Source of the DNA: Candidatus Saccharimonadota bacterium
GTDB taxonomy: Bacteria > Patescibacteriota > Saccharimonadia > Saccharimonadales > JAGQNK01
Length of the DNA stretch: 49,080 nt
Direction of reading: 5' to 3'
Assembly (NCBI GenBank): GCA_020428105.1
Contig: JAGQNK010000015.1
Location: 1,209 to 50,288 of the forward strand
Shown here: positions 22,013 to 47,990 of the stretch, piece after piece
Numbering within the stretch: the stretch's first letter is position 1
How the letters are laid out: every line of letters starts with the position of its first letter
The notes under the pieces: model-generated
Database searches by the model: none
The model's input: only the letters and a program-made list of their open reading frames with translations
What the model was told of the DNA's origin: nothing
Made by a program: the position numbers and the translations under genes

Positions 22013-22491
22013 TGAATACTAGCTCAGAAAAAGGTATCGAAGAAGCAATACAATATGCCAAGAAGTACCTAGAAGATTTGTTGTCATTCTTTGGACTAAA
22101 TACTGATATTTACGCTACTACAGAGGATAACGAGGTAATTGAACTGAGTGTTCCAAGTACTCATCTGAACGGCTTTTTGATAGGCCAACGAGGTGAAACT
22201 ATGCGTGCTCTACAGTTTGTGGTTAGTAATGCGTTAAAAAATCAAGGTTTTGAAACAACCAGAGTGAACGTCGACGTGGCGGATTACAAGAAACAGCGTG
22301 CTGATCGCTTGGCGCAACAAGTTGAAGAATGGGTTGAGATAGTCAAAGAGTCTGGCGAGCTGAAACACCTAAAGCCTATGAACGCGGCGGATAGACGTGT
22401 CGTTCATAAAGTAGCATCGGATAGCGGACTGTTGACCGAGTCCGAAGGCGAGGGTCGGGATCGTCATGTTGTGCTAAAGCCGGCAGTTTAG
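22012..22491 (+). CDS. jag: Jag/KhpB(EloR)-like RNA-binding protein (KH plus R3H, no N-terminal Jag domain)
   Basis: LIGQRGETMRALQ (KH), PMNAADRRVVH (R3H), SEGEGRDRHVV; AGGAGG SD at 22001-22006. Confidence 0.88.
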   Translation: MNTSSEKGIEEAIQYAKKYLEDLLSFFGLNTDIYATTEDNEVIELSVPSTHLNGFLIGQRGETMRALQFVVSNALKNQGFETTRVNVDVADYKKQRADRLAQQVEEWVEIVKESGELKHLKPMNAADRRVVHKVASDSGLLTESEGEGRDRHVVLKPAV

Positions 22492-23588
22492 TCACCCAAA
22501 ACTTGTTTGTAAACCGCCAGTGTTTGCTCGGCCATCCGTCGCCAAGAGAATTTCTTTAGTCGTTTATGCCCTTTTATTACTAAGTCTTTCTGAAGATCTT
22601 TGTTCGTAATCACCTCATCTACCTTGGTTGCAATGTCTTTGATATTTTCAGGGTCAAAGTAGCTTGCGGCGTCTCCGTAGACTTCTGGTAAGCACGTAGC
22701 GTTACTACTAACTAATGGGCAATCATGTGCCATGGCCTCCAGTCCAGGTAAGCCGAATCCTTCGCTCAAAGAAGGTAAAACATAGGCCTCGGCGTTTTGA
22801 TACAACCACTTTAATTCTTCGTCAGCCACAAAACCGGTAAATACGATACTGTCGGCAAACTTCTTGTCTTTTGTGTATTGTTCAAGTTTTTCGAAATACT
22901 GCTCTTTCTTCCCTGCTAAAACAAGCTGAAGATTCGGATGGTTTATTTTCAGTAACTCAAAGGCCTCGACTAGACGCTCAATATTTTTGTGCGGGAAGGG
23001 GCTTCCAACATGCAGGATAAATGGTCTACTGACTCCTTGAGGTTGGTGGGCTGGTACCGAAATCGGTGGCTCGCTGGCGCAATAAGTGACGGTAATACGG
23101 TCTTTGGCAAATGGATAATGTTTTGTTACGTCAGATTTAACATATTTGGAAATTGTTATTATGGCTTTAGACTTCCTGAGGCTATACCAAAACAAGAAGC
23201 GATAAGCAATCATCCGAATAGAATGATAAAGTGTGGAGTGCCTACCTGCTCTAGTAAAACGCAACATAGTCATATCCATGGTCGCTGTAACGACCGGCTT
23301 TAAGTACAAAAGTGGTTGCTGGTTCATTGGAAAATTCACCAAATCAGCCTTTAGGTTGTATAGCTGCCATGCAAACCCGATTTGGTGCAATGGATTGAAG
23401 GAGAATTGTGGATATGATGAATTCACCCTTGTAAAGTTTTCGGCTATGGGCTGCCAAGGATCATCTGGCTGAATCAGAATAGAGTATTTATTGACGTTGT
23501 CCACTGACTGTAGGTGCTCAACCAACCTATCAACATAGCGACCGGTACTGCTGCGACGAATTCGCGCATCAATAACTATATGGCTCAT
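22488..23588 (-). CDS. GT4-family glycosyltransferase
   Basis: HKNIERL, PSLSEGFGLPGLEAM, SNATCLPEV. Confidence 0.9.
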   Translation of the reverse strand: MSHIVIDARIRRSSTGRYVDRLVEHLQSVDNVNKYSILIQPDDPWQPIAENFTRVNSSYPQFSFNPLHQIGFAWQLYNLKADLVNFPMNQQPLLYLKPVVTATMDMTMLRFTRAGRHSTLYHSIRMIAYRFLFWYSLRKSKAIITISKYVKSDVTKHYPFAKDRITVTYCASEPPISVPAHQPQGVSRPFILHVGSPFPHKNIERLVEAFELLKINHPNLQLVLAGKKEQYFEKLEQYTKDKKFADSIVFTGFVADEELKWLYQNAEAYVLPSLSEGFGLPGLEAMAHDCPLVSSNATCLPEVYGDAASYFDPENIKDIATKVDEVITNKDLQKDLVIKGHKRLKKFSWRRMAEQTLAVYKQVLGD

Positions 23589-23601
23589 AGGTTACAATTA
23601 T

Positions 23602-24927
23602 ATGGTGCAAACGATAAAACAGCTACCCCGATGGGGTGTTTATGCCCTTCTGATATATATGCCTTTCCACGTGTTTTTGTCACAATGGATTGGTACGTCT
23701 ATGGGCGGACTATCTTTTTGGAAGGTTGCGAAAGATTTAGCGACCATTGTGTTGCTTGCTCTTACGGCTATTCTGGTTTTGTGGAAAGTGCCGCACAAAA
23801 CTTGGCGACCATATGCTTCCCTACTTGTTTTAGCTGGGGTATATGCAGCGCTACACATCATCCTGTACATCATCAACAAGAACACCACACTAGACATAGC
23901 CTTGCTGGCCAGTGGTTACAATAATCGTTTCATTTGGATATTGTTGATCGGGATTGGTTCTGGGTTGTTGTTGAACACCAGACCAAAACAGCAAACTATT
24001 GTTAGGCTTGTGCTTATAGTCAGTACCATAGTTTGCTTGATTGGTATTCTGCAATGGTTTTTGCCAAGTGATGTTCTGACTCATTTTGGCTACGCAAAAG
24101 AGCTTGGCGTAAAACCAAACTTTTTTATCAACGAAAACCCCAATTTCCCAAGAATTTTTGCGACTTTTCGAGACCCTAATTCGTTTGCAGCATATTTGAT
24201 TATCCCTTCATTGCTACTAATGGAGCTGATTCGTACAAACAAACGGCGAAAATTGTCTATTGCTTTGCTCGTCTTGCACTTGGTCGTGGTGTATCTTTCT
24301 TTCTCCCGGGCTGCTTGGCTGGGTTTGTTGCTAGGTGTTTCTGTTCTGCTATTTGTCCATCATAGACACTACATCCAGGCGATATCAAGGCGGTACTGGC
24401 CTTTATTACTCTCGGGTGCTCTAGTAATGATTTTTATCACATATGCCGTCCGGAATACATCTACGTTTCGCAGTATAGTGCTTAAAGCCGACGATACGAA
24501 CGCTTCAACAGAAATGGATTCTGACGAATACCATGTGTTTTTCATCAAAGAGGGCCTAAGAGATGTATCACGGCGCCCTACTGGCTATGGTCCAGGAACT
24601 GCCGGTATAGTTTCGATTCATAATGGTGCGCAAGGTCAGTTGACCGAAAACTACTATGTTCAGATCGCACACGAAGTCGGCATATTAGGTCTAGCTGTGT
24701 TCATAGCAATATGGGCTTTGGTTTGTAAGCTGCTTTATAGCCAAGAGCAATCGTCGCTCAGGACGGTTTTGCTGGTCTCTGCTGTTGTATATGCAGTAAT
24801 GGCAATGGTGATGCATTTGTGGACGAATGAAGCGATAGCCTTTGGTTGGTGGGGCTTAGCTGGTCTAGTGATATTCACGGGTAATAGTCACAACAAAACG
24901 TCAAAGAAACGGATGATATACTCTTAG
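23602..24927 (+). CDS. O-antigen ligase / O-oligosaccharyltransferase-like (Wzy_C) membrane protein
   Basis: About 12 TMs; RIFATFRDPNSFAAY, SFSRAAW, GYGPG, ENYYVQIAHEVGILG. Confidence 0.8.
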   Translation: MVQTIKQLPRWGVYALLIYMPFHVFLSQWIGTSMGGLSFWKVAKDLATIVLLALTAILVLWKVPHKTWRPYASLLVLAGVYAALHIILYIINKNTTLDIALLASGYNNRFIWILLIGIGSGLLLNTRPKQQTIVRLVLIVSTIVCLIGILQWFLPSDVLTHFGYAKELGVKPNFFINENPNFPRIFATFRDPNSFAAYLIIPSLLLMELIRTNKRRKLSIALLVLHLVVVYLSFSRAAWLGLLLGVSVLLFVHHRHYIQAISRRYWPLLLSGALVMIFITYAVRNTSTFRSIVLKADDTNASTEMDSDEYHVFFIKEGLRDVSRRPTGYGPGTAGIVSIHNGAQGQLTENYYVQIAHEVGILGLAVFIAIWALVCKLLYSQEQSSLRTVLLVSAVVYAVMAMVMHLWTNEAIAFGWWGLAGLVIFTGNSHNKTSKKRMIYS

Positions 24928-24945: not shown

Positions 24946-25197
24946 ATGTTATCTGGTGGAAAATTTGAACAGGTAGAGATACCTATATTGCCTGGGTCAA
25001 TTAACTCAATTATGGCCATGAATCCAGAAATGACTTCAGCTGACGCGACAAAACTATTAAGTGAGCAGCTTGGGCGATACCAAGCTGCTGCGTCTGCAAT
25101 GCTTGGAGTAACGCAATCAGAACTGCATGAAATGAAATCTGAAGAGATCAGACACAAGTTAGATATAGGTAATGTAGGAGAGACGGAACGAGTATGA
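24946..25197 (+). CDS. Small hypothetical protein (83 aa) coupled to gmd
   Basis: Strong SD AAGGAGGTGA; ATGA overlap with gmd. Confidence 0.65.
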   Translation: MLSGGKFEQVEIPILPGSINSIMAMNPEMTSADATKLLSEQLGRYQAAASAMLGVTQSELHEMKSEEIRHKLDIGNVGETERV

Positions 25198-26240
25198 AAA
25201 AAGCGTTAATAACGGGTGTTGCTGGCCAAGACGGCGGACATCTAGCAAAATTGCTACACGAAAAAGGTTATGAAGTACATGGTGTGATTCGTGGACAGAT
25301 GGAGGCTAGTCATCCTAGATATAAGACGCTAAAACAAGAGATGCCCTTTGTAAATTTGGTCATGGCTGATCTGCTAGACCTAGCTGCTTTAACTCGTGCT
25401 TTGCAAGAAATACAACCAGATGAAGTTTACAACCTGGCTGCCATTAGTCATGTTGGATATTCTTTCCGTGACCCTATTTTGACCGCTGATGTGACTGGTA
25501 AGGGTGTGCTTAATGTTCTTGAGGCAATAAGACTAGCCGGACTAGAAAAAACTACCAGATTTTACCAGGCATCAACGTCAGAGATGTTTGGAGGTCTCGA
25601 CTACAACAGACCAGATACCGGATATACCGAAGAAGCATCTTTTCACCCACGCAGTCCATATGGCGTAGCAAAGCTGTACGGTCATTGGATTACTTGTAAC
25701 TACCGTGAGAGCTATGGCATGCATGCAAGCTGTGGCATACTCTTCAACCACGAAGGGGAACGCCGTGGGCCAGAGTTCGTCACTCGTAAAATTAGTAAAG
25801 CCGTCGCGCGAATCAAATTAGGGCTACAGGAAGACCTAGAGCTTGGAAACCTAGACGCAAAACGTGACTGGGGTTACGCCGGGGATTATGTTGAAGGTAT
25901 GTGGCGAATGTTGCAGCAAGAACAGCCGGCAGACTACGTTTTGGCCACTGGCGAGACTCATTCGATTCGTGAGTTTTGTGAACTTGCTTTTAAGGAAGCA
26001 GGAATTAATATAAATTGGCAGGGTAACGGTGTGGATGAGACTGGTGTAGACGCTACAACCGGCAAGGTACTGATTAAAATTAATCCAGACTTCTTTAGAC
26101 CAGCAGAAGTGGACTTGCTACTAGGTAACCCCGCAAAGGCCGAGAAGACACTTGGGTGGAAGCGAGCAATTGACTTCCCTGGTTTAGTTAAGCTGATGGT
26201 GCAACACGATCTTGGACTAGAAGAAGCGAAACTAGGCTAG
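25194..26240 (+). CDS. gmd: GDP-mannose 4,6-dehydratase
   Basis: ALITGVAGQDG, YNLAAISHV, FYQASTSE, PRSPYGVAK, GILFNHE, RDWGYAGDYV. Confidence 0.96.
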   Translation: MKKALITGVAGQDGGHLAKLLHEKGYEVHGVIRGQMEASHPRYKTLKQEMPFVNLVMADLLDLAALTRALQEIQPDEVYNLAAISHVGYSFRDPILTADVTGKGVLNVLEAIRLAGLEKTTRFYQASTSEMFGGLDYNRPDTGYTEEASFHPRSPYGVAKLYGHWITCNYRESYGMHASCGILFNHEGERRGPEFVTRKISKAVARIKLGLQEDLELGNLDAKRDWGYAGDYVEGMWRMLQQEQPADYVLATGETHSIREFCELAFKEAGININWQGNGVDETGVDATTGKVLIKINPDFFRPAEVDLLLGNPAKAEKTLGWKRAIDFPGLVKLMVQHDLGLEEAKLG

Positions 26241-26272: not shown

Positions 26273-27202
26273 TTATTGGTTGTAGCGAACAAAGTCGTTT
26301 ATCGTTTGACTGAGTGAGATAACTGGCTCCCAACCGGTGTCTTCTCGTAGTCTATCGCTACTGCCATATAAATCCGCGGGATCATTTGGTCGAATTAATG
26401 ATTGGTCAGTTGTTGTTTTGATGTCGATCAGACCCATTGATTTTGTCATCAAGTCTAATATATCTTGCCCAGAATGGCTTTTTCCACTGCATATATTGTA
26501 TGTGTCATGCTCTAGAGTTTCTGCAACAGCTAGGTCAGTGTAGCCACGCACAATATCACGTACATCCGTGTAGTCCCGTTTGGTTGAGAGATTGCCAACT
26601 AACACCGGCAAACCAGACGATTGGTATTGTACTAGCTTATTGAATAAGTCCGGTATCAAGAAGCCCGGAGCTTGTCCCGGGCCGGTGTGATTAAACGGTC
26701 TGACAATAATACAATCGAGCCCCTGTAGCCTTAGATCACGAGCTGCTTCTTCCATAGAGACTTTACTCAGTGCATAAGGAGACCCGGTCCGGATAATCCT
26801 AGACTCTTCGTTAAGTGGCATTGGCTGGTCTGGGTCATAAACTGCACCAGTGCTTATCGCTAACAGTCTAGCCTTTGAATTAACTGATAACAACCGTCTT
26901 CCTAGTATAGTAAGAACTTCGACATTGACCTTTTTGTAAAGTTCTTCTGCATTAAAGGATGCACCAACGTTTGCTAGACCCGCTAGGTTAATGATTGCAT
27001 CAATGTTGTCCAAGTCCAATTTTTCAACCTGACTTTCGTCTATGAGATCACAGGCTGTATAGACATCGGCCAGTTCGCTAACCGCGCTGGTTGGCGATTT
27101 TTCTCTTCCAATACCAATGACCCTATGGCCGCGTGACTTAAGATCGCGAACTAAGTTTATTCCAACAAAACCATTAACACCTGTAACAACAATATCCAGC
27201 AT
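26273..27202 (-). CDS. rmd: GDP-4-keto-6-deoxy-D-mannose reductase (Rmd-like; GDP-D-rhamnose synthesis)
   Basis: Extended SDR with GVNGFVG, SPYALSK, RPFNHTGPGQ and VGNLSTKRDYTDVRD. The RPFNH-GPGQ motif is typical of Rmd; adjacent to gmd. Confidence 0.75.
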   Translation of the reverse strand: MLDIVVTGVNGFVGINLVRDLKSRGHRVIGIGREKSPTSAVSELADVYTACDLIDESQVEKLDLDNIDAIINLAGLANVGASFNAEELYKKVNVEVLTILGRRLLSVNSKARLLAISTGAVYDPDQPMPLNEESRIIRTGSPYALSKVSMEEAARDLRLQGLDCIIVRPFNHTGPGQAPGFLIPDLFNKLVQYQSSGLPVLVGNLSTKRDYTDVRDIVRGYTDLAVAETLEHDTYNICSGKSHSGQDILDLMTKSMGLIDIKTTTDQSLIRPNDPADLYGSSDRLREDTGWEPVISLSQTINDFVRYNQ

Positions 27203-27282: not shown

Positions 27283-28086
27283 GTGAAGAAACTCCAACAG
27301 CGGTATCGCTACTCTCTCATTTTACTCAAACAGCTCGTAAAAACCGATTTCAAGCTGCGCTATCAAGGTTCAGTGCTTGGGTATCTGTGGTCTTTGCTAC
27401 GACCACTGGCACTGTTTGTTATTCTCTACGTTGTCTTTACAAAATTCCTTAAAATTGGCGAAGGCGTCCCACACTACCCAATATATTTATTGCTCGGTAT
27501 CATACTCTGGAACTACTTCATTGAGGTAACATCTGGCAGTATCACCGCAATCGTAGGCAAGGGCGACCTCATCCGAAAAATCAATTTCCCTAAGTATGTA
27601 ATTGTGGTCGCTGGCTCATTCTCCGCCCTCATAAACCTGACCATTAACTTTGTGGTGGTAGGAGTTTTCATGATTTTTAGCCAGGTGGATATCAGACAGA
27701 TAGTCGTCCTGTTACCGTTGATCGTTCTGGAGCTTTTCATATTCTCTCTAGCTATGGCGTTTTTCCTGAGCGCAGCTTTTGTGCGCTTCCGCGACATCAA
27801 CTATATATGGGAGGTTCTCATGCAGGGCGCATTTTATGCCACACCAATACTCTACCCGCTCAGCTTGCTACCGATTGCTGCCGCTAAGTGGCTCATGCTT
27901 AACCCAATGGCGCAAATCATCCAAGACATACGCTATGTGCTGATCACGCCTCAAACACAGACTATAGATCAACTGTATGGTACGCAGCTCATACGACTGG
28001 TACCGTTTGGTATCGTGCTAGGCACAGCCATTGTCGCTACCTGGTATTTTAGAAGTCGCCAGCGGTTCTTTGCGGAGGAGGTGTAG
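27283..28086 (+). CDS. wzm: Polysaccharide ABC exporter permease Wzm
   Basis: DFKLRYQGSVLGYLWSLLRPL, FYATPILYP, LNPMAQII. Confidence 0.93.
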   Translation: MKKLQQRYRYSLILLKQLVKTDFKLRYQGSVLGYLWSLLRPLALFVILYVVFTKFLKIGEGVPHYPIYLLLGIILWNYFIEVTSGSITAIVGKGDLIRKINFPKYVIVVAGSFSALINLTINFVVVGVFMIFSQVDIRQIVVLLPLIVLELFIFSLAMAFFLSAAFVRFRDINYIWEVLMQGAFYATPILYPLSLLPIAAAKWLMLNPMAQIIQDIRYVLITPQTQTIDQLYGTQLIRLVPFGIVLGTAIVATWYFRSRQRFFAEEV

Positions 28087-28087
28087 T

Positions 28088-29266
28088 ATGGCTGATGATA
28101 TTGCAATCAAAGTAGAAAACGTCTCAAAGGATTTTAGCTATACCCGTCGAAAAGCAGTGACGGTAAAAAGTGCATTCACCAGTGTCTTTAAACGAAAAGC
28201 AAAAGATGAGAAGACCGTTCAGCATGCGTTAAAAGACATTAGTTTTGATATCAAAAAAGGAGAGTTTTTTGGTATTGTTGGACGTAATGGTAGCGGTAAG
28301 AGTACGTTGCTTAAAATGCTTGCAGGCATTTATCAGCCAACAAAAGGCAACATAACGGTCAATGGTAAGCTAGTGCCATTCATTGAGCTTGGTGTTGGCT
28401 TTAATCCTGAACTGACAGGCCGCGAGAATGTCTACATGAACGGCGCTCTTCTTGGCTTCAGTGAAAAGGAAGTATCTAGATTCTATGATGAGGTTGTTGA
28501 GTTTGCGGAGCTCGAACAGTACATGGACAAAAAGCTTAAAAACTATTCATCAGGGATGCAAGTCCGCTTAGCATTCTCGATGGCAATCCGTGCCAAGGCT
28601 GACATCTTACTAATTGACGAAGTCCTAGCCGTAGGCGACGCCGACTTCCAACGCAAATGCTTCAATTATTTCAAGCAACTTAAGGGCTTAGACACCACGG
28701 TTATCTTTGTGTCACACGATATGACCGCAGTACGACAATTTTGTAATAGAGCTATGCTTATAAATAACGGAATAATTCAGAATATCGGTGATGCTGATGA
28801 AGTGGCATTTTATTATTCCAAGCTTTTTGCGGACGATCATGATAAACGGCTACTACAGAGCAATAAATATTCTGGCAAATCTGATTACATTAAAAAACTA
28901 ACAATTGACATAGGAGAATATATTGCTTTGAGCGGATTGATATGTCCGATTAAAGATTTACAGTCACCAATATTTGGTTTTGTTGTAAAAGACTCCTCAG
29001 GAACAGCAATACTAGGATCTAACACAAAAATGTTAAGTCAAAGAACAGGAACGTTGAAAAAAAATAGTAAACATACCTTTTCTTGGCGGTTTCCAAATAT
29101 TTTGTCTGACGGCGAGTACACGATCGACCTTGCCCTAGTAGGGGAAGATGGCACATCAATTATTGAATGGCTGGAAGAGATTGGTCGATTTGTGATAAAG
29201 AAGACAATCACAAGTCCTTATTCGGTTATGCCAGAAATAACTTTAAAACTTACGGAGAAAAAATGA
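28088..29266 (+). CDS. wzt: Polysaccharide ABC exporter ATPase Wzt with C-terminal carbohydrate-binding-type domain
   Basis: GRNGSGKST, YSSGMQVRLAFS, DEVLAVGDADFQRKC, plus ~150 aa beta-rich extension; start set at 28088. Confidence 0.93.
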   Translation: MADDIAIKVENVSKDFSYTRRKAVTVKSAFTSVFKRKAKDEKTVQHALKDISFDIKKGEFFGIVGRNGSGKSTLLKMLAGIYQPTKGNITVNGKLVPFIELGVGFNPELTGRENVYMNGALLGFSEKEVSRFYDEVVEFAELEQYMDKKLKNYSSGMQVRLAFSMAIRAKADILLIDEVLAVGDADFQRKCFNYFKQLKGLDTTVIFVSHDMTAVRQFCNRAMLINNGIIQNIGDADEVAFYYSKLFADDHDKRLLQSNKYSGKSDYIKKLTIDIGEYIALSGLICPIKDLQSPIFGFVVKDSSGTAILGSNTKMLSQRTGTLKKNSKHTFSWRFPNILSDGEYTIDLALVGEDGTSIIEWLEEIGRFVIKKTITSPYSVMPEITLKLTEKK

Positions 29267-30267
29267 TTAAAAGATTTTTAAAGAAGACCACGAAACCTCG
29301 ACAACCTACCATAAAAGATCCAATAGATATCCTTAAATCCTACAATGTGTGGAGAAAAGATGAATGGCAGCGATACGCGATGACAGTATCATGTCGCGAT
29401 ACTGACTATATTCCAAAAGTGAAAGAAGCCGGTAAACTAAATATTGTTGATGGCCAAGAGGTTCAGATTATGCACAATGGAGTCAAGGTCATAAATGGGG
29501 GTTATCATGGGGAGTGGATGTCAAAAATTATCAATGACTTAAAGGGCCATCATGAGCCACAAGAGGAAAAGCTTTTTTACGAAATAACCAAACGACTTGA
29601 TAAATCACCTATAATTATAGAACTCGGTAGCTTCTGGTCGTATTACAGTATCTGGATAGTAACTGAATTTGAGCAAGCTAGAGCCATTGCGTGCGAACCA
29701 GATCCGACAAATATGAAAATTGGTCAAAACAACGCCCATATCAATAAAGTAGAAGATATGATTTCGTTTATAGATGCTGCAGCTGGTAGTGTAAATAACA
29801 AAAAAATTAGATTTACTCTTGACTCTGATCAGTCGCAAAAGATAACTACAAAAATACGCACCGTAGATTCATTAACTAATCAATACGGACTTAACAAGGT
29901 CGATATTTTGCATATGGATGTTCAAGGCGTAGAGCTAGATGCTTTAGAGGGTGCATTAAATACAATTAAGGCAGGTAAAGTTCGGTTTGTATTTGTCTCT
30001 ACGCACCATTATTTTTTTTCTGGCGATCCAATGACACACCAAAAGTGCAAGAATTTTTTGATAGACAACGGAGCAACAATAATTGCTTCGCATAATGTTT
30101 TAGAGTCGTTCAGTGGTGATGGGTTGATAGTAGCATCTTTTGACGAGCGTGATAGATCTTTGAAAATTGACGTATCATTAAACCATAGCGACGACTCATT
30201 GTTTAGGGCATACGAAGAGGATCTAAGTATATTGATAGATGAAATAAGGCAGAAAGCAAAGCTATGA
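29263..30267 (+). CDS. FkbM-family methyltransferase
   Basis: IELGSFWSYYS, CEPDP, DILHMDVQGVE; ATGA overlap with wzt. Confidence 0.85.
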   Translation: MIKRFLKKTTKPRQPTIKDPIDILKSYNVWRKDEWQRYAMTVSCRDTDYIPKVKEAGKLNIVDGQEVQIMHNGVKVINGGYHGEWMSKIINDLKGHHEPQEEKLFYEITKRLDKSPIIIELGSFWSYYSIWIVTEFEQARAIACEPDPTNMKIGQNNAHINKVEDMISFIDAAAGSVNNKKIRFTLDSDQSQKITTKIRTVDSLTNQYGLNKVDILHMDVQGVELDALEGALNTIKAGKVRFVFVSTHHYFFSGDPMTHQKCKNFLIDNGATIIASHNVLESFSGDGLIVASFDERDRSLKIDVSLNHSDDSLFRAYEEDLSILIDEIRQKAKL

Positions 30268-31130
30268 TTCCTCCAGATGTGTTTCCGAGTTATGCCCAGT
30301 ACCATGAAGATATAATCCTGGCCGCACTTTTTAAAGGGAAAAAAGATGGTTTTTATGTTGATGTTGGTGCCAACTACGAAGAGTATCACTCGGTTACAAA
30401 ATATTTCTATGAACGTGGTTGGCGGGGTATAAATATTGAGCCCATACCTCGTCTTATAAAGACATTTAATAAGAAGCGCCCAAGAGACATAAATCTCAAC
30501 TATGCTGTGGCAGCCAAAAAAGGTACTCTAAGTTTCCGCGAATATCCTAATCACGACGGTTATTCAACTTTTAGTGAAGAAACAAAAAAAGAGAATGAGA
30601 AACTAGGCTTACCACACATAGACTATGATGTAAAAGTCGATAGCCTCAAGAATATATTTACAAGGTATAAATTGACCGAAATCGATTTTCTAAAAATAGA
30701 TGTTGAGGGCTTTGAAAATGAGGTATTACATAGCAATGACTGGAAGATCTTTCGGCCAAAAGTAATATGTATTGAGGCAAATCATCGTGATGAAGACTGG
30801 TCAAAGTTTATCATAAGTCAGAAATACACATGCATTATATTTGATGGTCTCAATGAGTACTATATTGACAATGAGTCCATGGTTATATTCGACAATTTCG
30901 CTGAACGTGCTACTATTCTTGCTCATAATGGTATAAGAAATCATCTTCTCAATCAATGGAGAGAAGATATTAATCATATAGTTGAGCTAACGAATATGAT
31001 AGAACAAAAAGATAAGACTATAAGAACCCTTCAACATACACAACAAACCCTAGATATGAACATGCAGAATATCAAATTTTTGCTAAAACAACTAAAAAAG
31101 CAGATTATATTACGACTGAGGGTCAAATAA
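30264..31130 (+). CDS. FkbM-family methyltransferase with C-terminal coiled coil
   Basis: YVDVGAN, GWRGINIEP, DFLKIDVEGFE, RPKVICIE. Confidence 0.88.
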   Translation: MIPPDVFPSYAQYHEDIILAALFKGKKDGFYVDVGANYEEYHSVTKYFYERGWRGINIEPIPRLIKTFNKKRPRDINLNYAVAAKKGTLSFREYPNHDGYSTFSEETKKENEKLGLPHIDYDVKVDSLKNIFTRYKLTEIDFLKIDVEGFENEVLHSNDWKIFRPKVICIEANHRDEDWSKFIISQKYTCIIFDGLNEYYIDNESMVIFDNFAERATILAHNGIRNHLLNQWREDINHIVELTNMIEQKDKTIRTLQHTQQTLDMNMQNIKFLLKQLKKQIILRLRVK

Positions 31131-31204
31131 GTTTCATATAAATCACTGTGTTAGCGTTATGGGGTATCGAAGTAAGAAAATACAATAAATCGGTTTGAAC
31201 TATA

Positions 31205-32440
31205 TTATCTACCTTTTTGAGAAGTTATTGTCTTGTAGGTATCCTGTGCGCAGCGATCCCAGCTAAATGACCTTGCATTCTTTCTGCCATATGCTATAAG
31301 TTTTTTTCGCCATTCAATATCTTTTTGTAACGCCAAAACTGCATCTTGGATCGCGATACCCCCTTGTTCTTTTAGTAGTATTGCGGAATTACCTGCAATC
31401 TCAGGAATAGAAGAATTATCATATGTGATAACAGGGCAGCCTTCAAGCATAGCTTCTAGAATCGGCAAGCCAAACCCTTCATAGATGGTTGGGTACACAA
31501 AAACAAAGGCATGCTCCATAAGCCAGGTTTTTTCTTCCTGCGTGGTAAAACCTAGAAGATATATCTGGTCTCTGTAGGAACTATCCATTATTGCTTCACG
31601 TACTTCAATGTTTGGAACTTTATCTGCTTCAGCTAATTCCTTGCCACCCAAGACCAAGTCAAAGTTATGGCCACGCCCATTCAATAGGTTGAATGCATGT
31701 ATAAGATCCGCAATTTTGCGTCTTTCGTCAACGCCACCCGTATAGTAAAGCAAAGGATTGACACTTTTGTTGAGCTGTTTGGGCTTGTGGCTGTTTCGGG
31801 ATTCTTCATCTGGCATAGAAGGTGCCAAGTGTATTGTGGCTATCTTTTCCCTAGGGATCCCTACATAATCATGAAGGTCATTTGTTGTAGCTTGAGAAAT
31901 GCTGAGAATACGGGTAGCTCTACGCAAAGAGCGCAGTGAGCGCAAGTAGTGGTTTTCTCTCAACCAAGCCGAGAGAATCATTCTGAGTCTACGTATCTTG
32001 CCAAGCCCAGGCTTCGATAATAAATGTTTCCACGAAGGTAAATAAATATCTCTTAGAACCAGTGGAATTATGTCATACATAACTACATATTTTTTCATAC
32101 GTCTGCCACGCGGTAACCCCAACTGAAAGTCAGGCTGGAAGAACACGTCAGGGTTGTGAGTGTAAAGGTCTCCGAAACGCCGATGAAATCGTCTTTTTAC
32201 AACCTCCTTTAATATGTCTAATCCGTGTGGTTCTCCTGGTTTCTTCATGACGATTTCTTCGTATTCCTTGAACGGCAGATCAAAGTCATCGACTGGATTA
32301 CTATTGTCGTAACGAATGATTATGAATATGTGTTCAGTGTCTTCGGCCGGAAATCTACCAATAACATTGATTATGTAGGCACCAATACCACGATATTGGT
32401 GCCCTATTTGTAGAGGGCGCAGATCAATAGCAATTTTCAT
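31205..32440 (-). CDS. GT4-family glycosyltransferase
   Basis: YPTIYEGFGLPILEAM, DNSSIPEIAG. Confidence 0.9.
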   Translation of the reverse strand: MKIAIDLRPLQIGHQYRGIGAYIINVIGRFPAEDTEHIFIIIRYDNSNPVDDFDLPFKEYEEIVMKKPGEPHGLDILKEVVKRRFHRRFGDLYTHNPDVFFQPDFQLGLPRGRRMKKYVVMYDIIPLVLRDIYLPSWKHLLSKPGLGKIRRLRMILSAWLRENHYLRSLRSLRRATRILSISQATTNDLHDYVGIPREKIATIHLAPSMPDEESRNSHKPKQLNKSVNPLLYYTGGVDERRKIADLIHAFNLLNGRGHNFDLVLGGKELAEADKVPNIEVREAIMDSSYRDQIYLLGFTTQEEKTWLMEHAFVFVYPTIYEGFGLPILEAMLEGCPVITYDNSSIPEIAGNSAILLKEQGGIAIQDAVLALQKDIEWRKKLIAYGRKNARSFSWDRCAQDTYKTITSQKGR

Positions 32441-33594
32441 TTTATACTCCTGATCTGTTCTAATAATACTTTTGCACTTTTTTTGTAAGTAAATTTCTCG
32501 GATTGTTCATAACCCTTTTCTATGAGCTCTTTGGCCAGCTCTGTATTTGTCAGGACTTTTGCGATGCCTTTTGCAATGTCATTGCTGTCATCAGCCTTTA
32601 CCATGATTGCAGCATCTCCAACCGCCTCCGGAAGAGAGGAATTATCTGCGGAAACGACAGGCGTACCACACGCCATAGCTTCTATAGGCGGTATACCAAA
32701 GCCCTCGTAGTGGCTCACGTAGGCAAAAACTGACGCGCCACTATAGAGAGCCGGACGATCTTTGTCAATCACATAGTCAACTGGTTGAATTACCCTATCA
32801 CCTTTAATGCGCATGTCGAGAATCATTTCGTGGATCTCGTTATCATTCCATCCTTTTGCGCCGATTAGCAGTAAAGCATATTTACTTTTTATAGGTTCAG
32901 GAAGTTGGCGGTATGCTTCCAGTAATCCCTTCAGGTTTTTGCGGGGCTCTAGATTGCTTAGAAACATTATATAATTGTCATCAAAAATCCCGTACTTGGC
33001 TTTTACACGAGTAATCTCGTTTGTCGAGCGTGGATAAAAGCTGCGCGTATCAACACCGGGATAGCATATGAATACGTTTTTTGGGCTAATCTTATAATGT
33101 TCGATTATTTCACGTTTGCTATTCTCTGAGATCGTTAGGATTTTTGTTGCACGTTTTACGGATTTGCCCACCTGTTCCTCTAGAAATCTTTGGTTAGGTC
33201 CTGCAACAAATTCCGGATGAAATATAAATGACAGATCATAAATGAAGGGTATGGATTTTGAAAATAACATTGGCCACGAGCTGTAATTTGGGTAAAGATA
33301 TAATCTTTTCCCAAACATAAGGTCTATGGGGGGTTGGAGCCCTCTCTGCTTGAGACCGTTGCTGGTTCGTAGTGAAAAAGGGAAACGCTTGTAGTAGAAG
33401 TTTCTAAACCCAAATCGCCCTAATCGCCCTATATGCTTGTAATATGCTCCAAGAGAAATCTTGGTATCGCTTTCTGCTATGAGTAAATCATCGAGTGCTT
33501 TCAATAAGTCTGCTGTATAATGTCCGATTCCACTAAAGTGGTCAATGACCAAATTCTCGACATCAACATATACAGAGATTTTCTTTTTCCTCAC
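32437..33594 (-). CDS. GT4-family glycosyltransferase (mannosyl/rhamnosyltransferase-like)
   Basis: LEPRKNL, SHYEGFGIPPIEAMACG, NSSLPEAVG; GTG start. Confidence 0.9.
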   Translation of the reverse strand: MRKKKISVYVDVENLVIDHFSGIGHYTADLLKALDDLLIAESDTKISLGAYYKHIGRLGRFGFRNFYYKRFPFSLRTSNGLKQRGLQPPIDLMFGKRLYLYPNYSSWPMLFSKSIPFIYDLSFIFHPEFVAGPNQRFLEEQVGKSVKRATKILTISENSKREIIEHYKISPKNVFICYPGVDTRSFYPRSTNEITRVKAKYGIFDDNYIMFLSNLEPRKNLKGLLEAYRQLPEPIKSKYALLLIGAKGWNDNEIHEMILDMRIKGDRVIQPVDYVIDKDRPALYSGASVFAYVSHYEGFGIPPIEAMACGTPVVSADNSSLPEAVGDAAIMVKADDSNDIAKGIAKVLTNTELAKELIEKGYEQSEKFTYKKSAKVLLEQIRSIK

Positions 33595-33636: not shown

Positions 33637-35625
33637 CTATTTGATACCATTTGTACGCGTATGCCACACCGGCTTACCGTCATTTGTGTATAGCACTAGA
33701 TTCCCGTCACTCTGCATAGTGAGTCTAGATTCCCCACGTCCATTTGTACGCGTATGCCACACCGGCTTACCGTCATTTGTGTATAGCACTAGATTCCCGT
33801 CACTCTGCATAGTGAGCCTAGACGCATTCTTTCCCTGAGTGTAGCTAGCCCAGAGCACACGATCTCGCGAGTATAGCACTAGATTCCCGTCAGATTGGAG
33901 TACAAGTTGGTATGCTCGATCTATTGTCTCAATCTTTTGTCCAATATACAGCGTGCCACTTCTAAGGGTAGAGTTTATAATTTGCAAATTGTTCGGTCTT
34001 TGTACCGTTCCGTTATTCCATAAAGCTACACCAGACTTATAGATGACCATATTGCCGTCAATCTGTAAGCTAAGGTATGCTCCTGAGTTTCCGTTCGTCC
34101 TGCTATGCCATAGAGCGTTTCCAGATATACCGTACAATACTAGATTCCCGTCAGTTTGCATAATCAGTCTTTTTGCCTGTTTGCCGTGAGTGTTTGAACT
34201 CCAAGTGTTACTGAAGTTGGTTGATAGCACTAGATTCCCGTCATTCTGAAGTGCTAGTACTGTTTGTTTCTCTGGAGACATTAGGATTTGCCCCTTTTGG
34301 ATAGATGCTCCCGGGGCCAAGATAGTAGATGAAGAGCTAACTGATGCTGGTACGACACTATATACTGTGAAGCTTAGGCCCGGGTCATTAAACCATGCTA
34401 TTCCTTCGGCGACGAGACTAAGCTTTTCCACATACCTACCGGGAGAATTACCGGGTGTTTTGAGTATGAACTCGAAGGTTCCTACTGAACCAGGGGGAAC
34501 GCTATCTTCTAAAAGGGTAGCGGGTCGAGTGGTATAGGGCCAACTATCATCGTGTAATATACCGGCATGATCCCTAGGCCCAGAGGTTCCTAGCCTCACT
34601 TGATTTTTAGTCCAAGTTTCGTTACCTATATTGCGAGCCTTTACCCTTATGTATGCACTAGAACCAGGAGAGACGCTTATGATGCTAGTAAACGGCATAG
34701 TGCGGGAAGGGTCTATGTATGCTTCAGCTGATTCCAGAGTCCATGCATACGCAGTATTGGTTTGGGTGCTACCAAACCAGTCTGTAAACAGACGCCAAAA
34801 ATTACGATTGCCATAGGCGCTGCAAGAATCGCCTGTGCCGTAGAGATTTGCTAATGCAGCTGTATTAGGCTGATATGGCGTGTAATTATACAGGGCGGCT
34901 GTTGCTCCATTCTGCATAGTTATGTTTGTACCGCCACAGCTTGGTGCATTTGCTTGGTAGGGCACGAAACTTGTTCGACCTTTAGCGTAATTAAAGTAAT
35001 CAGGCTGAGCAATATAACGTTGATATTGCCTTGCGGCGCTATACACTTGGTTAAAGAATCCATAATACTGAGAGTCGCATGCTGCAGTGTCGGGGCAGCC
35101 AAATCCTGTAGCGCTTCGGTATTGAATACTCCACGGCCAGTCATCGGTAATCAGCGACTGCTCCTTTTGTAGCAGCACAATTAATACCTTTGGGCTGACT
35201 CCACAAGCTTGCGCTACGTCATAAATAATCTGAGCAGCCGACTTATTGCCACTATTTATAGAGCCCTTGCAATAACTATCGGCTGATTTACTTGGAATCG
35301 TCTGTTTGTAATCTTTCAAACAGGTGTATGGAGCAGGATAGCCCTTCGAGGCGCCGTAGGTGGCACGGGTAGTGCCAGCATATGGTTTCGTGCCATTTGT
35401 GTCACAAGTGGGTACCTTTGCATTGAGAAAAGTTTGTATCTGGCTTGCTGACATACTCGATTTGTTAAAAAATACACCATCAGCAATAATGTTTGATTTA
35501 TTAAACTGACTCCCAGTCAGAGCGTGGGTTGACACAACTCCTAACAAACCTAACAGGAAGCCAAGACTTATTATGGATATAGGTATTACCGCAAGTATTA
35601 TGTTCCAAGGCCTATGGGTACGCAT
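33637..35625 (-). CDS. Secreted surface protein: putative lysozyme-like domain, Ig-like domain and tandem bulb-type (GNA/B) lectin domains
   Basis: Signal/TM N-terminus; SPKVLIVLLQKEQS...GFGCPD domain; VKARNIGNETW Ig-like module; six QxDGN(L/M)V(L/I) motifs. Confidence 0.8.
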   Translation of the reverse strand: MRTHRPWNIILAVIPISIISLGFLLGLLGVVSTHALTGSQFNKSNIIADGVFFNKSSMSASQIQTFLNAKVPTCDTNGTKPYAGTTRATYGASKGYPAPYTCLKDYKQTIPSKSADSYCKGSINSGNKSAAQIIYDVAQACGVSPKVLIVLLQKEQSLITDDWPWSIQYRSATGFGCPDTAACDSQYYGFFNQVYSAARQYQRYIAQPDYFNYAKGRTSFVPYQANAPSCGGTNITMQNGATAALYNYTPYQPNTAALANLYGTGDSCSAYGNRNFWRLFTDWFGSTQTNTAYAWTLESAEAYIDPSRTMPFTSIISVSPGSSAYIRVKARNIGNETWTKNQVRLGTSGPRDHAGILHDDSWPYTTRPATLLEDSVPPGSVGTFEFILKTPGNSPGRYVEKLSLVAEGIAWFNDPGLSFTVYSVVPASVSSSSTILAPGASIQKGQILMSPEKQTVLALQNDGNLVLSTNFSNTWSSNTHGKQAKRLIMQTDGNLVLYGISGNALWHSRTNGNSGAYLSLQIDGNMVIYKSGVALWNNGTVQRPNNLQIINSTLRSGTLYIGQKIETIDRAYQLVLQSDGNLVLYSRDRVLWASYTQGKNASRLTMQSDGNLVLYTNDGKPVWHTRTNGRGESRLTMQSDGNLVLYTNDGKPVWHTRTNGIK
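33647..33822. repeat. 93-nt-period internal duplication in the lectin domain
   Basis: 33647-33723 is identical to 33740-33816 (77 bp), followed by one mismatch and 5 more matches. Confidence 0.92.
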
Positions 35626-35629
35626 GCAT

Positions 35630-36196
35630 CTATTCCACCTTAATTTGCTTAGATACGCCCTGAGCGCTATTAGATTTATACGATACAGTTGCAGTCCAGC
35701 CTTGGCCAGTCAATTTGGGGGTAGCCATCCTACCGCATTGTGTGTATGAAACATTTGCGACGCTAGTTGATGTAGTACTCAGAGTCTGTGTGCCGTTTGA
35801 AAAAACAGCTGTACACGTACCCCCATCTTCGACCACTCCTGTTACATTTGCAAAAACTGAATATATGTCTGCTGAAGTAATGGTAACAGTTACAGATTTT
35901 AAGGTGGTTATGCCAGGGTCACTATTGTCTTGCTGCTTTTGTTCCTCGACAATCTTTTCTTTGTTTGCATCATTCTGCCTATTATCTTCTCTGCTCGCAG
36001 GATCATAATTGATAGTATCCTGTCCCGTTTGTTGTGCAGACGTAGGCTTGCTCATCTGAGCTGGGGTAGTATTTTGTCGACTTCGCGCGTAGATACCTCC
36101 GCCTATAAGGGCAATAAGTACGATAGCCCCAGCTACAGGTGCTGGACTAAGTATTCTTTTTTTTGACAGGCTTTGTTTTGTAGTGTACTTTTTCAT
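35630..36196 (-). CDS. Membrane-anchored hypothetical protein with small C-terminal beta domain
   Basis: Basic N-terminus, one TM, Q/T-rich linker, GGTCTAVF...TQC Cys pair; 4 nt upstream of the lectin gene. Start set at MKKYTT. Confidence 0.7.
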   Translation of the reverse strand: MKKYTTKQSLSKKRILSPAPVAGAIVLIALIGGGIYARSRQNTTPAQMSKPTSAQQTGQDTINYDPASREDNRQNDANKEKIVEEQKQQDNSDPGITTLKSVTVTITSADIYSVFANVTGVVEDGGTCTAVFSNGTQTLSTTSTSVANVSYTQCGRMATPKLTGQGWTATVSYKSNSAQGVSKQIKVE

Positions 36197-36492
36197 ATTC
36201 TTTGTTTTATCGAATGTTATACCTGTACTTATTCTAGTATAAGCAAGGGTATTTCTCAATAGCGGAGCTATATTTCCCAGGTGTAGGCAGTGGAATGAAT
36301 GTCCCAGCCAGATGAGTTGGCTGAGGATGGGTGTCAGCTTGGAGCAGCTAACAACTCGAGACCGTTAGGTCGTGGGAAATTTACTACCTTCCTGAATGGT
36401 ATCGTTAAGGGCAAGACCGTATGTAGAGTGTATGGAGCAATGTTTACGTTTACGCGAAATTCCCACTAAAAATGATGCTATAATATATTCTA

Positions 36493-37986
36493 ATGTTAAA
36501 AATACGAGCCTCTCAGTTAGCTGGGCTTACAGATGTCATAACGGTTGCTATTGCTAGCCGTGTATTCTTTGGGTTCATCCTCCTAATGTCGGTGGTGCAA
36601 GGTATGTGGTACGCCCTAAGCTTCCGCCCCTTTATATTTGATGAGCCGCGACACATACAGTTTATAGATATGTATACTCATACGTTAAATCCACTTATTA
36701 GTGTGCAGACTCAAAACTTGGATGTTTTAGGACAGGTTGCCCGTGAGCCGTCTTATCTCTACTACTATGCTATGAGTTTTCCTTTACGTTTTTTTCATCT
36801 AATAACGGACAGTCAGCAGGCACATATTATTTTACTTAGATTTGTAAGTATAGGAATATTTGTGGTTTCGCTACTCTTACTTAAAAAGTTGTTTGATGAA
36901 ATTGGTCTGTCAAAAGCCATTTCTAATCTAGTATTATTTATATTTATCATGCTGCCCGTAACAGGGACAATTATTGGTTCAGTGACGTATGATACGGCAG
37001 TTCTACCCCTAATATTTCTGATGCTTCTGTGTACGACTAGAGTTTTGAGATCAAAGCAAATCAATGTAAGGCTTGTACTGTTTTTTTATGTAATCGCTTG
37101 TGTTGCGTCTGTTATAAAGTACACATCATTACCTATAGCAGTCACGTGTACATTTATAATTTTTCATCACTATGGCAGATACTATAAGACAGACTTTAAA
37201 AAGTTATTTAAGCACTGTCAGAACCAGCTGACTACACAGAGGCCGATTATTAATATAATACTTGGTTTGATTCTTGTTGCTGCCACATTCGTTGCTATAG
37301 AAAGGCCCATCAAAAACATGGTCTCTTATCACAATATATCCCCTAGTTGTGCGAGGACTTTACCCCCGGTTGAGGCAGAGTCACGTTGTATCAAGAACTA
37401 TACGTATAAACGAGATGTAGAATTTAAAAAAGATAAGCCAGCAGACTTTGCTGCTGTCGATCAGACTAGGTATTTCTTGACGACCTGGGTGCCGGGTATG
37501 CTGTATACATCTGAGCAACAGTATCCTGGAGCATCCGCGGTAAGGTTTAGCCGTCATTTTCATAATATGCTATTTCTTGCCGGGCTAGCACTAATATTGC
37601 TGGCATTGAGAGAGGCCCTGCGGAGGAATAAACTGCTACATGTATTATTATGGACAACTATTGCCTATAGTTTCTCAGTTTTCCTGTCAAACTACGACGG
37701 ATACGCTAGGCTAGGTAAACCGGTCGCCATTAATGCACGGTATCTATTGCCAGTACTGCCCTTGTTTATAGGAATCCTGCTTTTTAGCTGTTCCATACTG
37801 TTTAAACGAAATGGCCATAAACTAGTACTAGTTTCGCTACTCATATATATACTTACCTTAACGCAGGGCGGGGGAATTATTTCATACATAATGAACGGTA
37901 ACAACAATATCTATTGGCCACACAATGTTGTGATAAGGGCTAATGATACTGCAAAGTTAGTTTTGTCGAAGATAGTACTACAATGA
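36493..37986 (+). CDS. GT-C-fold (ArnT/PMT-like) multi-TM glycosyltransferase
   Basis: TM1 followed by PFIFDEPRH (acidic DE loop), REPSYLYY, ~11 TMs, INARYLLP; paralog of 46172-47680. Confidence 0.65.
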   Translation: MLKIRASQLAGLTDVITVAIASRVFFGFILLMSVVQGMWYALSFRPFIFDEPRHIQFIDMYTHTLNPLISVQTQNLDVLGQVAREPSYLYYYAMSFPLRFFHLITDSQQAHIILLRFVSIGIFVVSLLLLKKLFDEIGLSKAISNLVLFIFIMLPVTGTIIGSVTYDTAVLPLIFLMLLCTTRVLRSKQINVRLVLFFYVIACVASVIKYTSLPIAVTCTFIIFHHYGRYYKTDFKKLFKHCQNQLTTQRPIINIILGLILVAATFVAIERPIKNMVSYHNISPSCARTLPPVEAESRCIKNYTYKRDVEFKKDKPADFAAVDQTRYFLTTWVPGMLYTSEQQYPGASAVRFSRHFHNMLFLAGLALILLALREALRRNKLLHVLLWTTIAYSFSVFLSNYDGYARLGKPVAINARYLLPVLPLFIGILLFSCSILFKRNGHKLVLVSLLIYILTLTQGGGIISYIMNGNNNIYWPHNVVIRANDTAKLVLSKIVLQ

Positions 37987-45229: not shown

Positions 45230-46126
45230 ATGGTTAGGGTAGTCTATCGACATAATCAGGGTTCGTTCAGGATTACGCACAAAGCTTTGGTGCTGTTTGT
45301 GTTCCTGGCAGGAGTATTAATTTCGAGCGCTGGATTGATTTTGAGGTCACATTATTTTGCGGGTGCGGCAATTTCGCCGAGATCAACGGATGATCTTTGG
45401 TACACTGCCAACGCTATAGATACTGGGTATAACAAGGATGTGGGATGCAACCTTGATCAGTATGGATACTGTTTGAGGAATTGTACTAGCTACACGGCTC
45501 AAAGGTTAGGCGCCGCTGGGGTTAAGGCAGACATCCTGAGTGGGTTAGGCAATGGTGGGTCGTGGTATAGTTCGGCTTTTGCCAAGGGTGTTTCCGTAGG
45601 GTCTGTTCCCAAGATTGGTGCCGCCGCAGTAATTACAGGATCGCCAGGTCACGTTGGTTTCGTAACGGCTGTGCATTCAAACGGTTCTATAGATGTTGCT
45701 AGCTATAATGGTGGTATAGAGCAACCGCAGTTTGAAAACAACGTAACACGCTATAGTCATTTTGTATATTTTTCCAACGTAGGATCATCATCTGATGCAG
45801 AAATGCATAGTAAAGAAGACATACTAAGCGTTGAGCTGGATAGCGAGGGTTTGGCTCGCTACATGCTCGGTAAATCTAACGGTAACGGCACATTCAGCTG
45901 GGGTTATACGAATCTCAAGAGTATGGGTAAGCCAAGCTTTATGCAGTTAGGTGATGTAACGGGAGACGGCAAAGCAGATATTGTTGCCGTAGAAGTGCCG
46001 GCTGGTCAACCGGCTCGCTACATGCTCGGTAAATCTAACGGTAACGGCACATTCAGCTGGGGTTATACGAATCTCAAGAGTATGACTGTACCCTTTCTTG
46101 TTGGGATAGGGCCGATAGGAGAGTAG
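45230..46126 (+). CDS. Secreted CHAP-domain protein with two FG-GAP/VCBS-like repeats
   Basis: N-terminal TM; RNCTSY, GNGGSW, GHVGFV; LGDVTGDGKADIV repeat motif. Confidence 0.8.
   Translation: MVRVVYRHNQGSFRITHKALVLFVFLAGVLISSAGLILRSHYFAGAAISPRSTDDLWYTANAIDTGYNKDVGCNLDQYGYCLRNCTSYTAQRLGAAGVKADILSGLGNGGSWYSSAFAKGVSVGSVPKIGAAAVITGSPGHVGFVTAVHSNGSIDVASYNGGIEQPQFENNVTRYSHFVYFSNVGSSSDAEMHSKEDILSVELDSEGLARYMLGKSNGNGTFSWGYTNLKSMGKPSFMQLGDVTGDGKADIVAVEVPAGQPARYMLGKSNGNGTFSWGYTNLKSMTVPFLVGIGPIGE
45853..46084 (+). repeat. Exact 73-bp internal duplication (159-nt offset)
   Basis: 45853-45925 is identical to 46012-46084 and encodes ARYMLGKSNGNGTFSWGYTNLKSM twice. Confidence 0.93.
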
Positions 46127-47726: not shown

Positions 47727-47990
47727 ACAGTAAAGCAATACACTATTCGCAACATTCCTGAGCCAGTTGATCGGTATCTGCGTAAGCGTGCCAAGCTGAG
47801 CGGACAGAGTTTGAACACGGTGATTATCGAAGAACTTTCCGAACGAGCCGGCACCGGCAAACAAACTCTACTAGAAGCGCTAGACTGGTTTATCGGCAGC
47901 GGAATCGACGACGAAACGCTTCGTGCTATAGAGGAAGAGGATAAAATCCAGAAAGAACTAGCCCGAAAAGAGCTTAATGATGCTGCTTGA
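47724..47990 (+). CDS. FitA-like ribbon-helix-helix antitoxin
   Basis: QYTIRNIPEPVDRYLRKRAKLSGQSLN; overlaps the downstream PIN gene. Confidence 0.8.
   Translation: MTVKQYTIRNIPEPVDRYLRKRAKLSGQSLNTVIIEELSERAGTGKQTLLEALDWFIGSGIDDETLRAIEEEDKIQKELARKELNDAA

Follow-up and report, generated by a model that had tools for sequence, protein, structure and literature searches.

The window analysed here is a stretch of 49,080 nucleotides from a Candidatus Saccharimonadota bacterium (assembly GCA_020428105.1, contig JAGQNK010000015.1, positions 1,209 to 50,288 of the forward strand), and the gene under study, called the target below, is the open reading frame (ORF) of 662 amino acids that occupies exactly positions 33637-35625 on its minus strand. 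The source organism is a Saccharibacterium of activated sludge or wastewater, and the gene is found in identical form on contigs from three independent studies (activated sludge, wastewater). The window opens with recF-dnaN-dnaA and rnpA-yidC, after which comes a glycan locus that starts with genes for a GT4 glycosyltransferase and a Wzy_C protein, gmd, an rmd-like reductase gene, wzm, wzt (with a Wzt_C domain), two FkbM genes and two GT4 genes, followed by the target. Past the target lie the genes for a 209-aa membrane protein (the partner), a DUF2142 GT-C-like protein, a methyltransferase, a GT4 enzyme, an LPG_synthase_TM-like protein, a UDP-sugar dehydrogenase and a GT2 enzyme, and then manC, a PMM-like HAD gene, a CHAP+FG-GAP hydrolase gene and a second DUF2142 gene. 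An initial annotation, made from the sequence alone, had placed the target between glycosyltransferases; this holds directly downstream, where a GT4 gene follows, but on the other side the first neighbour is the 209-aa membrane protein and the DUF2142 GT-C-like gene comes only after it.

The encoded protein is secreted and is made of four parts: a signal peptide, a 260-aa head, an NBR1-type Ig-like module and two B-lectin domains. Its features are the following:

35521..35625, minus strand: Sec signal peptide (aa 1-35), with a hydrophobic N-terminus and predicted cleavage after ...STHA
34741..35520, minus strand: head domain (aa 36-295), which has no library model, a putative lysozyme-like glycosidase
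35161..35163, minus strand: codon of Glu155, a nearly invariant glutamate at the C-terminal end of a model helix (aa 145-156)
34336..34740, minus strand: NBR1-type Ig-like (FW) spacer module (aa ~296-430)
33991..34326, minus strand: B-lectin (β-prism II) domain 1, with motifs at aa 460 (QNDGNLVLS), 490 and 521
33640..33990, minus strand: B-lectin domain 2, with three intact QSDGNLVLY motifs at aa 577, 607 and 638
33647-33729 and 33740-33822, minus strand: two 83-nt blocks, identical at 82 of 83 positions, which encode identical 27-aa lectin sub-domains

This parse had been read correctly in the initial annotation (a tandem lectin, an Ig-like module and a domain containing QKEQ), and the six QxDGNxV motifs counted there are the six given above. 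The mature chain starts at a common A-L-S/T-G-S-x-F position in about 120 homologues. The N_BRCA1_IG match of the middle module is weak in the target (E=0.005, below the cut-off) and clear in homologues (5e-17 in protein P0083), for most of which PF16158 is precomputed, and relatives carry from one to four copies of the module. The target sequence has neither an LPXTG motif nor a C-terminal membrane anchor, and therefore its retention must be non-covalent; judging from the sequence, the lectin would be its sole plausible means of retention.

Five of the six lectin motifs have the complete QxDxNxVxY form, the one at aa 460 ending in S and not in Y, and the Pfam model B_lectin (PF01453) is matched above its gathering score (58.3 bits against 32.4, E=1.2e-15) in four stretches. 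Pyocin L1 and putidacin L1 align in the PDB sequence search at ~1e-23 across aa 430-655 (~215 residues), and there are therefore two tandem lectin domains. The best PDB sequence match is the LysM-lectin 4oit from M. smegmatis (2e-25, aa 553-655). This protein, of the MSMEG_3662 type, resembles the target in that an actinobacterial B-lectin is joined to a peptidoglycan-binding module, although it has a single lectin domain, LysM in place of the enzyme head and a different gene context. The QxDxNxVxY sites of pyocin L1 and putidacin L1 bind D-rhamnan, with D-rhamnose preferred over D-mannose (PMC3916391). No literature linking B-lectin or MMBL domains to Saccharibacteria was found. Assemblies break at the lectin repeats (33647-33822); in Logan unitigs, a repeat unitig at ~2x depth and a junction unitig are present in three runs, and the 631-aa protein P0002, which equals the target minus one 31-aa unit, is probably an assembly collapse.

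LlpA, putidacin L1 and pyocin L1 are bacteriocins of Pseudomonas that share with the target the tandem MMBL domains with QxDxNxVxY sites, and this homology suggests a reading in which the target is an LlpA-like lectin bacteriocin with a lytic warhead, directed against competing Saccharibacteria that bear D-rhamnan, the small membrane protein encoded upstream being its immunity factor. The pairing of a lysin gene with one for a small membrane protein does resemble toxin/immunity logic, and the lectin DNA has been recently rearranged. However, LlpA-type bacteriocins are stand-alone proteins of ~28 kDa, whereas the lectin pair of the target is the tail (aa 431-662) of a 662-aa enzyme-like protein, and the score against the NCBIfam model LLB_putidacin (NF033557; E 2.3e-55, 187.9 bits) is under the family cut-off of 275. 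Saccharibacteria are expected to have neither an outer membrane nor BamA. The killing action of L-type pyocins lies in a C-terminal peptide, an inhibitor of BamA in their Gram-negative targets (PMC13463100), and the protein studied here has no LlpA-type C-terminal extension, since it ends 16 aa past its last lectin motif and its alignment to pyocin L1 ends ~40 residues short of the end of the pyocin chain. In addition, head and partner are near-core, single-copy, syntenic and conserved and occur in ~75% of the genomes of the order, and a tblastn search with the head found none among 50,697 phage and 72,556 plasmid records, so that no endolysin or mobile-element link was found. The cut-off, the architecture and the pattern of conservation led to the rejection of the bacteriocin reading, which is very improbable.

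The sugar that the lectin may bind is suggested by the genes around the target, which, by sequence comparison, encode a well-supported GDP-D-rhamnose pathway next to a glycan export system:

25194-26240, plus strand: gmd, matching the equivalog TIGR01472 with 441 bits (cut-off 415)
26273-27202, minus strand: rmd-like reductase gene, whose best PDB match is Rmd 2pk3 (2.9e-38), followed by Rmd 6x3b (1.9e-25)
27283..33594: wzm, wzt (Wzt_C), two FkbM methyltransferase genes and two GT4 genes, for ABC-transporter-dependent glycan assembly
32437-33594: GT4 gene immediately downstream of the target
35630..36259, minus strand: partner gene (209 aa), upstream of the target and stopping 4 nt before its start codon

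After the two Rmd structures, the next short-chain dehydrogenases/reductases (SDRs) match the rmd-like reductase at ~1e-14, and Fcl is unmatched (31 bits against 500). Both gmd and the rmd-like gene lie 6.5-8.5 kb from the target.

The association of the lectin with gmd plus rmd, which the initial annotation had put forward as a check, was analyzed by recording four features in one set of 251 genomes from the order Saccharimonadales. B_lectin occurs in 28 of them, strong gmd matches in 80, an rmd-like gene in 59 (next to gmd in the genomes compared) and a strong head match in 141. Head and lectin are joined in one ORF in 13 genomes from 11 families, and all 13 have both gmd and rmd; among the 128 genomes whose heads carry other tails, gmd is found in 37 and rmd in 27 (Fisher p=4.5e-7 and 1.5e-8, respectively). 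The association holds within families, since only 5 of 27 non-lectin heads of the same families are accompanied by rmd (within-family label permutation, p≈1e-4). In at least 10 of the 13 genomes, one contig carries both gmd and the lectin gene, 7-16 kb apart, and a FastTree phylogeny of the head (~117 database homologues) requires at least 7 changes of the lectin state, therefore the association does not go back to a single inherited event. Such co-occurrence would be expected of a lectin that binds the polymer of the neighbouring genes, and it does not follow from a reading in which the lectin binds host glycans. The proposal of the initial annotation that the lectin anchors the protein to the cell's own D-rhamnan is, therefore, the one favoured by these counts.

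The head is by far more widespread than the lectin. At least 7898 proteins (3985 representatives at 50% identity, E<=0.001) are homologous to it; it is present in 188 of the 251 Saccharimonadales genomes (~75%), usually as a single copy, as is the case in the genome of the window, and its identity across families of the order is 65-80%. The core of the head (profile positions ~90-250) is found in about one third of the Patescibacteria genomes outside the class, and heads with 45-58% identity occur in Actinomycetota (Leifsonia, Agromyces, Cryobacterium, Cellulomonas, Microbacterium, Xylanimonas, Sanguibacter, Geodermatophilus and Bifidobacterium psychraerophilum). A partner homologue is directly upstream of the head gene in most Saccharimonadales loci examined, and a weak partner-like ORF occupies the same place in Leifsonia, Bifidobacterium, Geodermatophilus and Cellulomonas; wzm/wzt are within a few kb of the head gene in loci of both phyla, and the whole block gmd-rmd-wzm-wzt-fkbM-GT4-GT4-[head-Ig-lectin]-partner is syntenic in at least 6 families. 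The partner protein carries a membrane anchor at its N-terminus, together with a charged linker and an Ig/FN3-like β-sandwich in which E, G, C, C and W residues are invariant; its AlphaFold2 model (predicted local distance difference test score, pLDDT, 89.8) is a generic Ig/FN3 sandwich, the best fold match of which is a carbohydrate-binding module (8wae, E 7.5e-3). A role of the partner as a lysozyme inhibitor of the MliC/PliC/Ivy type was considered and found no support in this fold. Divergent heads (28-31% identity) together with Ig and B-lectin modules were also observed in a wzm/wzt/gmd block at two other loci (L114, G233:C1:544000-563999, and L115, G056:C1:9000-28999); in the first of these genomes (G233), identity between the neighbouring SDR and the rmd-like gene is only 29%, and gmd, with an E value of ~1e-161, scores well above the rmd-paired gmd genes (~1e-115 to 1e-135).

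A pair that is probably orthologous to partner and target has been reported in Southlakia epibionticum ML1, in which SEML1_0890 (195 aa, Ig/FN3) and SEML1_0891 (565 aa) are both classed as essential by transposon sequencing (Tn-seq) (PMC10633639). In the supplement of that study, residues 21-265 of SEML1_0891 are labelled 'Lysozyme-like' through SagB 6fxp (DPAM p=0.93) and are followed by a 7-bladed FG-GAP propeller, and the pair is flanked by a GT-C gene, a GT2 gene and an ABC ATPase gene (PMC10633639). Both loci have a small Ig/FN3 protein encoded directly upstream of a secreted ~245-aa 'Lysozyme-like' region with a glycan-binding tail; they differ in the tail, which is a 7-bladed FG-GAP/VCBS propeller in SEML1_0891 and a B-lectin in the target, and in that no mention of gmd/rmd was found for the SEML1 locus, whose published reading is host-glycan targeting.

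The same reading can be extended to the target, and it agrees with the other suggestion of the initial annotation, the delivery of a muralytic domain to mannosylated host surfaces: the lectin would read D-rhamnose/mannose wall glycans of the host (rhamnomannan, lipomannan) and the head would breach the peptidoglycan of the host where the epibiont attaches. Saccharibacteria live as obligate epibionts on Actinomycetota, host glycans were put forward, as a speculation, as the target of SEML1_0890/0891 by Wang et al. in 2023 (PMC10633639), and a head that is common to Actinomycetota with 45-58% identity should fit actinobacterial walls. The wall polysaccharide of the host S. odontolytica is rich in rhamnose and mannose; Nanosynbacter attachment is modulated both by host polysaccharides of this kind and by added sugars, TM7x no longer binds when exogenous rhamnose or mannose is supplied, and 'a yet undiscovered adhesin' was invoked (10.64898/2026.10.06.756255). 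Nevertheless, the sugar in those blocking experiments is L-rhamnose, the presence of the lectin follows the symbiont's own gmd/rmd also within families, and the head, which is present in single copy and strongly conserved from family to family, does not resemble an arms-race effector. Free-living Actinomycetota, moreover, carry the head (in several loci with the weak partner-like ORF) beside their own wzm/wzt, and therefore a role in the cell's own envelope is argued. A host-directed device is, in consequence, disfavoured and appears unlikely.

The nature of the head itself has to be deduced from its fold. No Pfam, NCBIfam or PHROG model matches it, whether the whole protein or the excised domain is scanned; the genome of the window contains no match to Pfam Glucosaminidase (PF01832), and Pfam scans of distant Patescibacteria homologues gave no bridge from the head to a known family. 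An AlphaFold2 model built from a 60-sequence alignment has high scores (pLDDT 94.9, predicted template modelling score 0.92), and almost all of its top Foldseek matches in the PDB belong to the lysozyme-like peptidoglycan glycosidases (AtlE, Atl-GL, SagB, LytB, Acp, Auto, Slt35, gp144, SltB1, MltC/F, EtgA and goose lysozyme), at E values of ~0.37-7 and template modelling (TM) scores of ~0.3. The viral library BFVD returns the same classes (best E 0.035, probability 0.9). The QKEQ sequence noticed in the initial annotation is at aa 153-156, within the motif LLQKEQSL, and its Glu155 is proposed, on the basis of the model, as a candidate catalytic residue; Asp161, Asp179, several Tyr and 8 Cys are also conserved in head alignments. 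The head is probably lysozyme-like, as had been guessed from the QKEQ sequence.

The best fold matches are GH73 autolysins, namely LytB of S. pneumoniae (7pj3/7pj4), AtlE (4pi7) and SagB-SpdC (6u0o) of S. aureus and Acp of C. perfringens (8yxn). They have in common with the target the design of a catalytic domain plus a retention module (catalysis being putative in the target), and S. aureus SagB too works with a membrane protein partner. They differ from it in showing no detectable sequence similarity to the head and a TM of ~0.3, in lacking its Cys-rich N-terminal extension and in the retention module, which is a β-prism II lectin in the target and consists of choline-binding, SH3b or LysM repeats in the autolysins. 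The weak fold scores and the absence of a sequence link to any glycoside hydrolase family would also fit a non-catalytic surface or structural protein that binds glycans, with the head as a binding or scaffold domain and a fortuitous resemblance to lysozymes. This has only a slim chance of being right, because secreted enzymes typically have such a set of residues (a near-invariant Glu, invariant Asp and Tyr, and four conserved Cys pairs that form disulfides), and because the head is placed where modular wall hydrolases carry their catalytic domains. Three or four tandem copies of the head are present in some proteins of 824-1116 aa (P0123, P0124 and P0125).

Homologues of the head are always preceded by a signal peptide and followed by interchangeable tails. 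In Saccharibacteria these are B-lectin, NBR1-Ig repeats, FG-GAP, DUF5648 and DUF346; in Actinomycetota they include the wall-binding LGFP and ChW repeats; and in other Patescibacteria they are EccB-like repeats and FG-GAP, one class having a Peptidase_S11 DD-carboxypeptidase. A signal peptide, a putative catalytic domain and swappable wall-binding modules make up the layout of modular wall hydrolases, and the fusions follow the pattern of an enzyme domain that acts on the wall and whose retention modules can be exchanged. The tandem lectin is also fused to CHAP peptidoglycan hydrolases in relatives: two Saccharimonadales proteins (G030:C6, 425 aa, and G014:C2, 446 aa) have the lectin pair of the target at their C-terminus, with 33-42% identity, but their catalytic domain is a CHAP amidase/endopeptidase and they have neither an Ig spacer nor a partner gene. 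Two related observations were made. A locus of another Patescibacteria class (L124, G267:C4:229400-234900) contains an ORF (2268-4511) in which the head core is joined to EccB-like repeats and Peptidase_S11 (E=8e-23), a two-enzyme wall protein, and the locus of the target encodes a further secreted wall hydrolase with CHAP and FG-GAP-like domains (45230-46126, plus strand).

The linkage of the head gene to wzm/wzt, kept in two phyla, and the location of the target inside a biosynthetic block, near Wzy_C ligase-like and GT-C genes, raise the possibility of a factor for the assembly or processing of the glycopolymer, in which the head would trim, release or transfer the polymer exported by Wzm/Wzt, or the linkage unit of this polymer, while its tail would keep it on the substrate. 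Lysozyme-like folds occur in glycanases that do not act on peptidoglycan too, which counts in favour of this idea. On the other hand, the head is strongly conserved and the glycan genes vary (gmd/rmd are found in about one quarter of the genomes), and so its substrate should be invariant; the fusions to DD-carboxypeptidase, LGFP, ChW and EccB-like modules point to peptidoglycan as well. The probability of such a function is small.

We favour, at about an even chance, the reading that the target is a lysozyme-like glycosidase that is secreted and acts on the wall of the producing cell, where it would be tethered by its B-lectin to a D-rhamnose-type polymer and work with the Ig-like partner. It starts from the observed architecture, homologies, synteny and co-occurrence of the target; catalysis, substrate, sugar specificity and the interaction with the partner are what we infer. 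The protein would be exported by Sec and held in the wall non-covalently, where the head would cleave a glycosidic bond, either of the peptidoglycan glycan strand or of a conserved glycopolymer linkage, with Glu155 of LLQKEQSL as the putative acid catalyst. The Ig-like module would serve as a spacer and the tandem B-lectin, with its five intact QxDxNxVxY sites, as the retention module, binding the D-rhamnose/D-mannose-type polymer that the adjacent gmd-rmd-wzm-wzt-GT4 genes would make and export, in the way that choline-binding or LGFP/ChW repeats keep autolysins on wall polymers. The Ig-like partner, which is translationally coupled and anchored in the membrane, would probably position or regulate the enzyme at the interface between membrane and wall. 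The S-layer-like wording of the initial annotation finds no support in this enzyme-plus-anchor design, which is not that of a lattice protein.

Several points weigh against this reading. Regarding the head, none of the Foldseek matches reaches E<=0.001 (TM ~0.3), a 14-sequence head profile searched against all PDB sequences gave only chance PP2A matches, and HHalign of the head with the GH73 domain of E. coli FlgJ gave a probability of 0.08, so that the guess of a lysozyme-like domain is supported by the classes of fold matches and not by sequence profiles. Glu155 is replaced by Q in one aligned homologue. Regarding the lectin, physical linkage of a mobile cassette, and not binding, could explain in part its co-occurrence with rmd, and 27 genomes that have rmd carry heads with other tails. 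As for the related pair of S. epibionticum, the orthology of SEML1_0891 rests on architecture and synteny, not on sequence, and a gene that is essential to an obligate epibiont may serve either its self-maintenance or the exploitation of its host. Finally, no head match was obtained in three genomes of the same genus (G001-G003). One of them, G003, retains the dnaA...gmd-rmd-wzm-wzt-fkbM block with 73-92% identity on a contig (L110, G003:C40) that ends ~1 kb past the block; no head fragment is present elsewhere in this assembly, and the absence of the head from G003 may be due either to gene loss or to a break of the assembly at the lectin repeats.

Very little is known of the envelope biology of Saccharibacteria and other Patescibacteria, which are ultrasmall epibionts. 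The pair of head and partner, for which no library model exists, is nearly universal in the order and common to the host phylum, and in the only relative studied by Tn-seq it is probably essential. That the B-lectin tail is strictly linked to the GDP-D-rhamnose pathway provides a testable hypothesis on the ligand of the lectin. A new family of wall-glycan or peptidoglycan hydrolases, if this is what the head is, would fill a gap in our view of wall remodelling around exported glycopolymers in Saccharibacteria and in many Actinomycetota; if the target acted on the host instead, it would be a candidate for the missing sugar-dependent adhesin or lysin. A broader proposal, advanced here only tentatively and with doubt, is that the head and its membrane-anchored Ig-like partner form an unrecognised two-gene module, a new glycoside-hydrolase-like family that is obligatory in ABC-transporter-dependent wall-glycopolymer assembly in Patescibacteria and Actinomycetota and whose tail is matched to the glycan made by the neighbouring genes. 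If this were true, a B-lectin tail would be expected where GDP-D-rhamnose is made and other lectins or propellers elsewhere, and the tail module would become a rule for reading surface-glycan type, able to predict it for uncultured cells.

The rest of the locus also contains several elements related to glycan assembly. The genes for the GT4 enzyme and the Wzy_C (O-antigen-ligase-like) membrane protein (22488-24927), located directly after yidC/jag, adjoin gmd, and the combination of GT4/Wzy_C, Wzt_C and two FkbM proteins resembles S-layer-glycan or capped O-antigen-type assembly, with no lipopolysaccharide genes in view. The two DUF2142 (GT-C-like) paralogues (36493-37986 and 46172-47680) flank a second glycosylation block, composed of the methyltransferase, GT4, LPG_synthase_TM-like, UDP-sugar dehydrogenase, GT2, manC and PMM-like genes. 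An ORF on the minus strand that runs off the end of the window (48379-49080) matches GDP_Man_Dehyd/Epimerase over the C-terminal two-thirds, a further sugar-nucleotide SDR, and beside it there is a PIN-domain gene (47977-48378).

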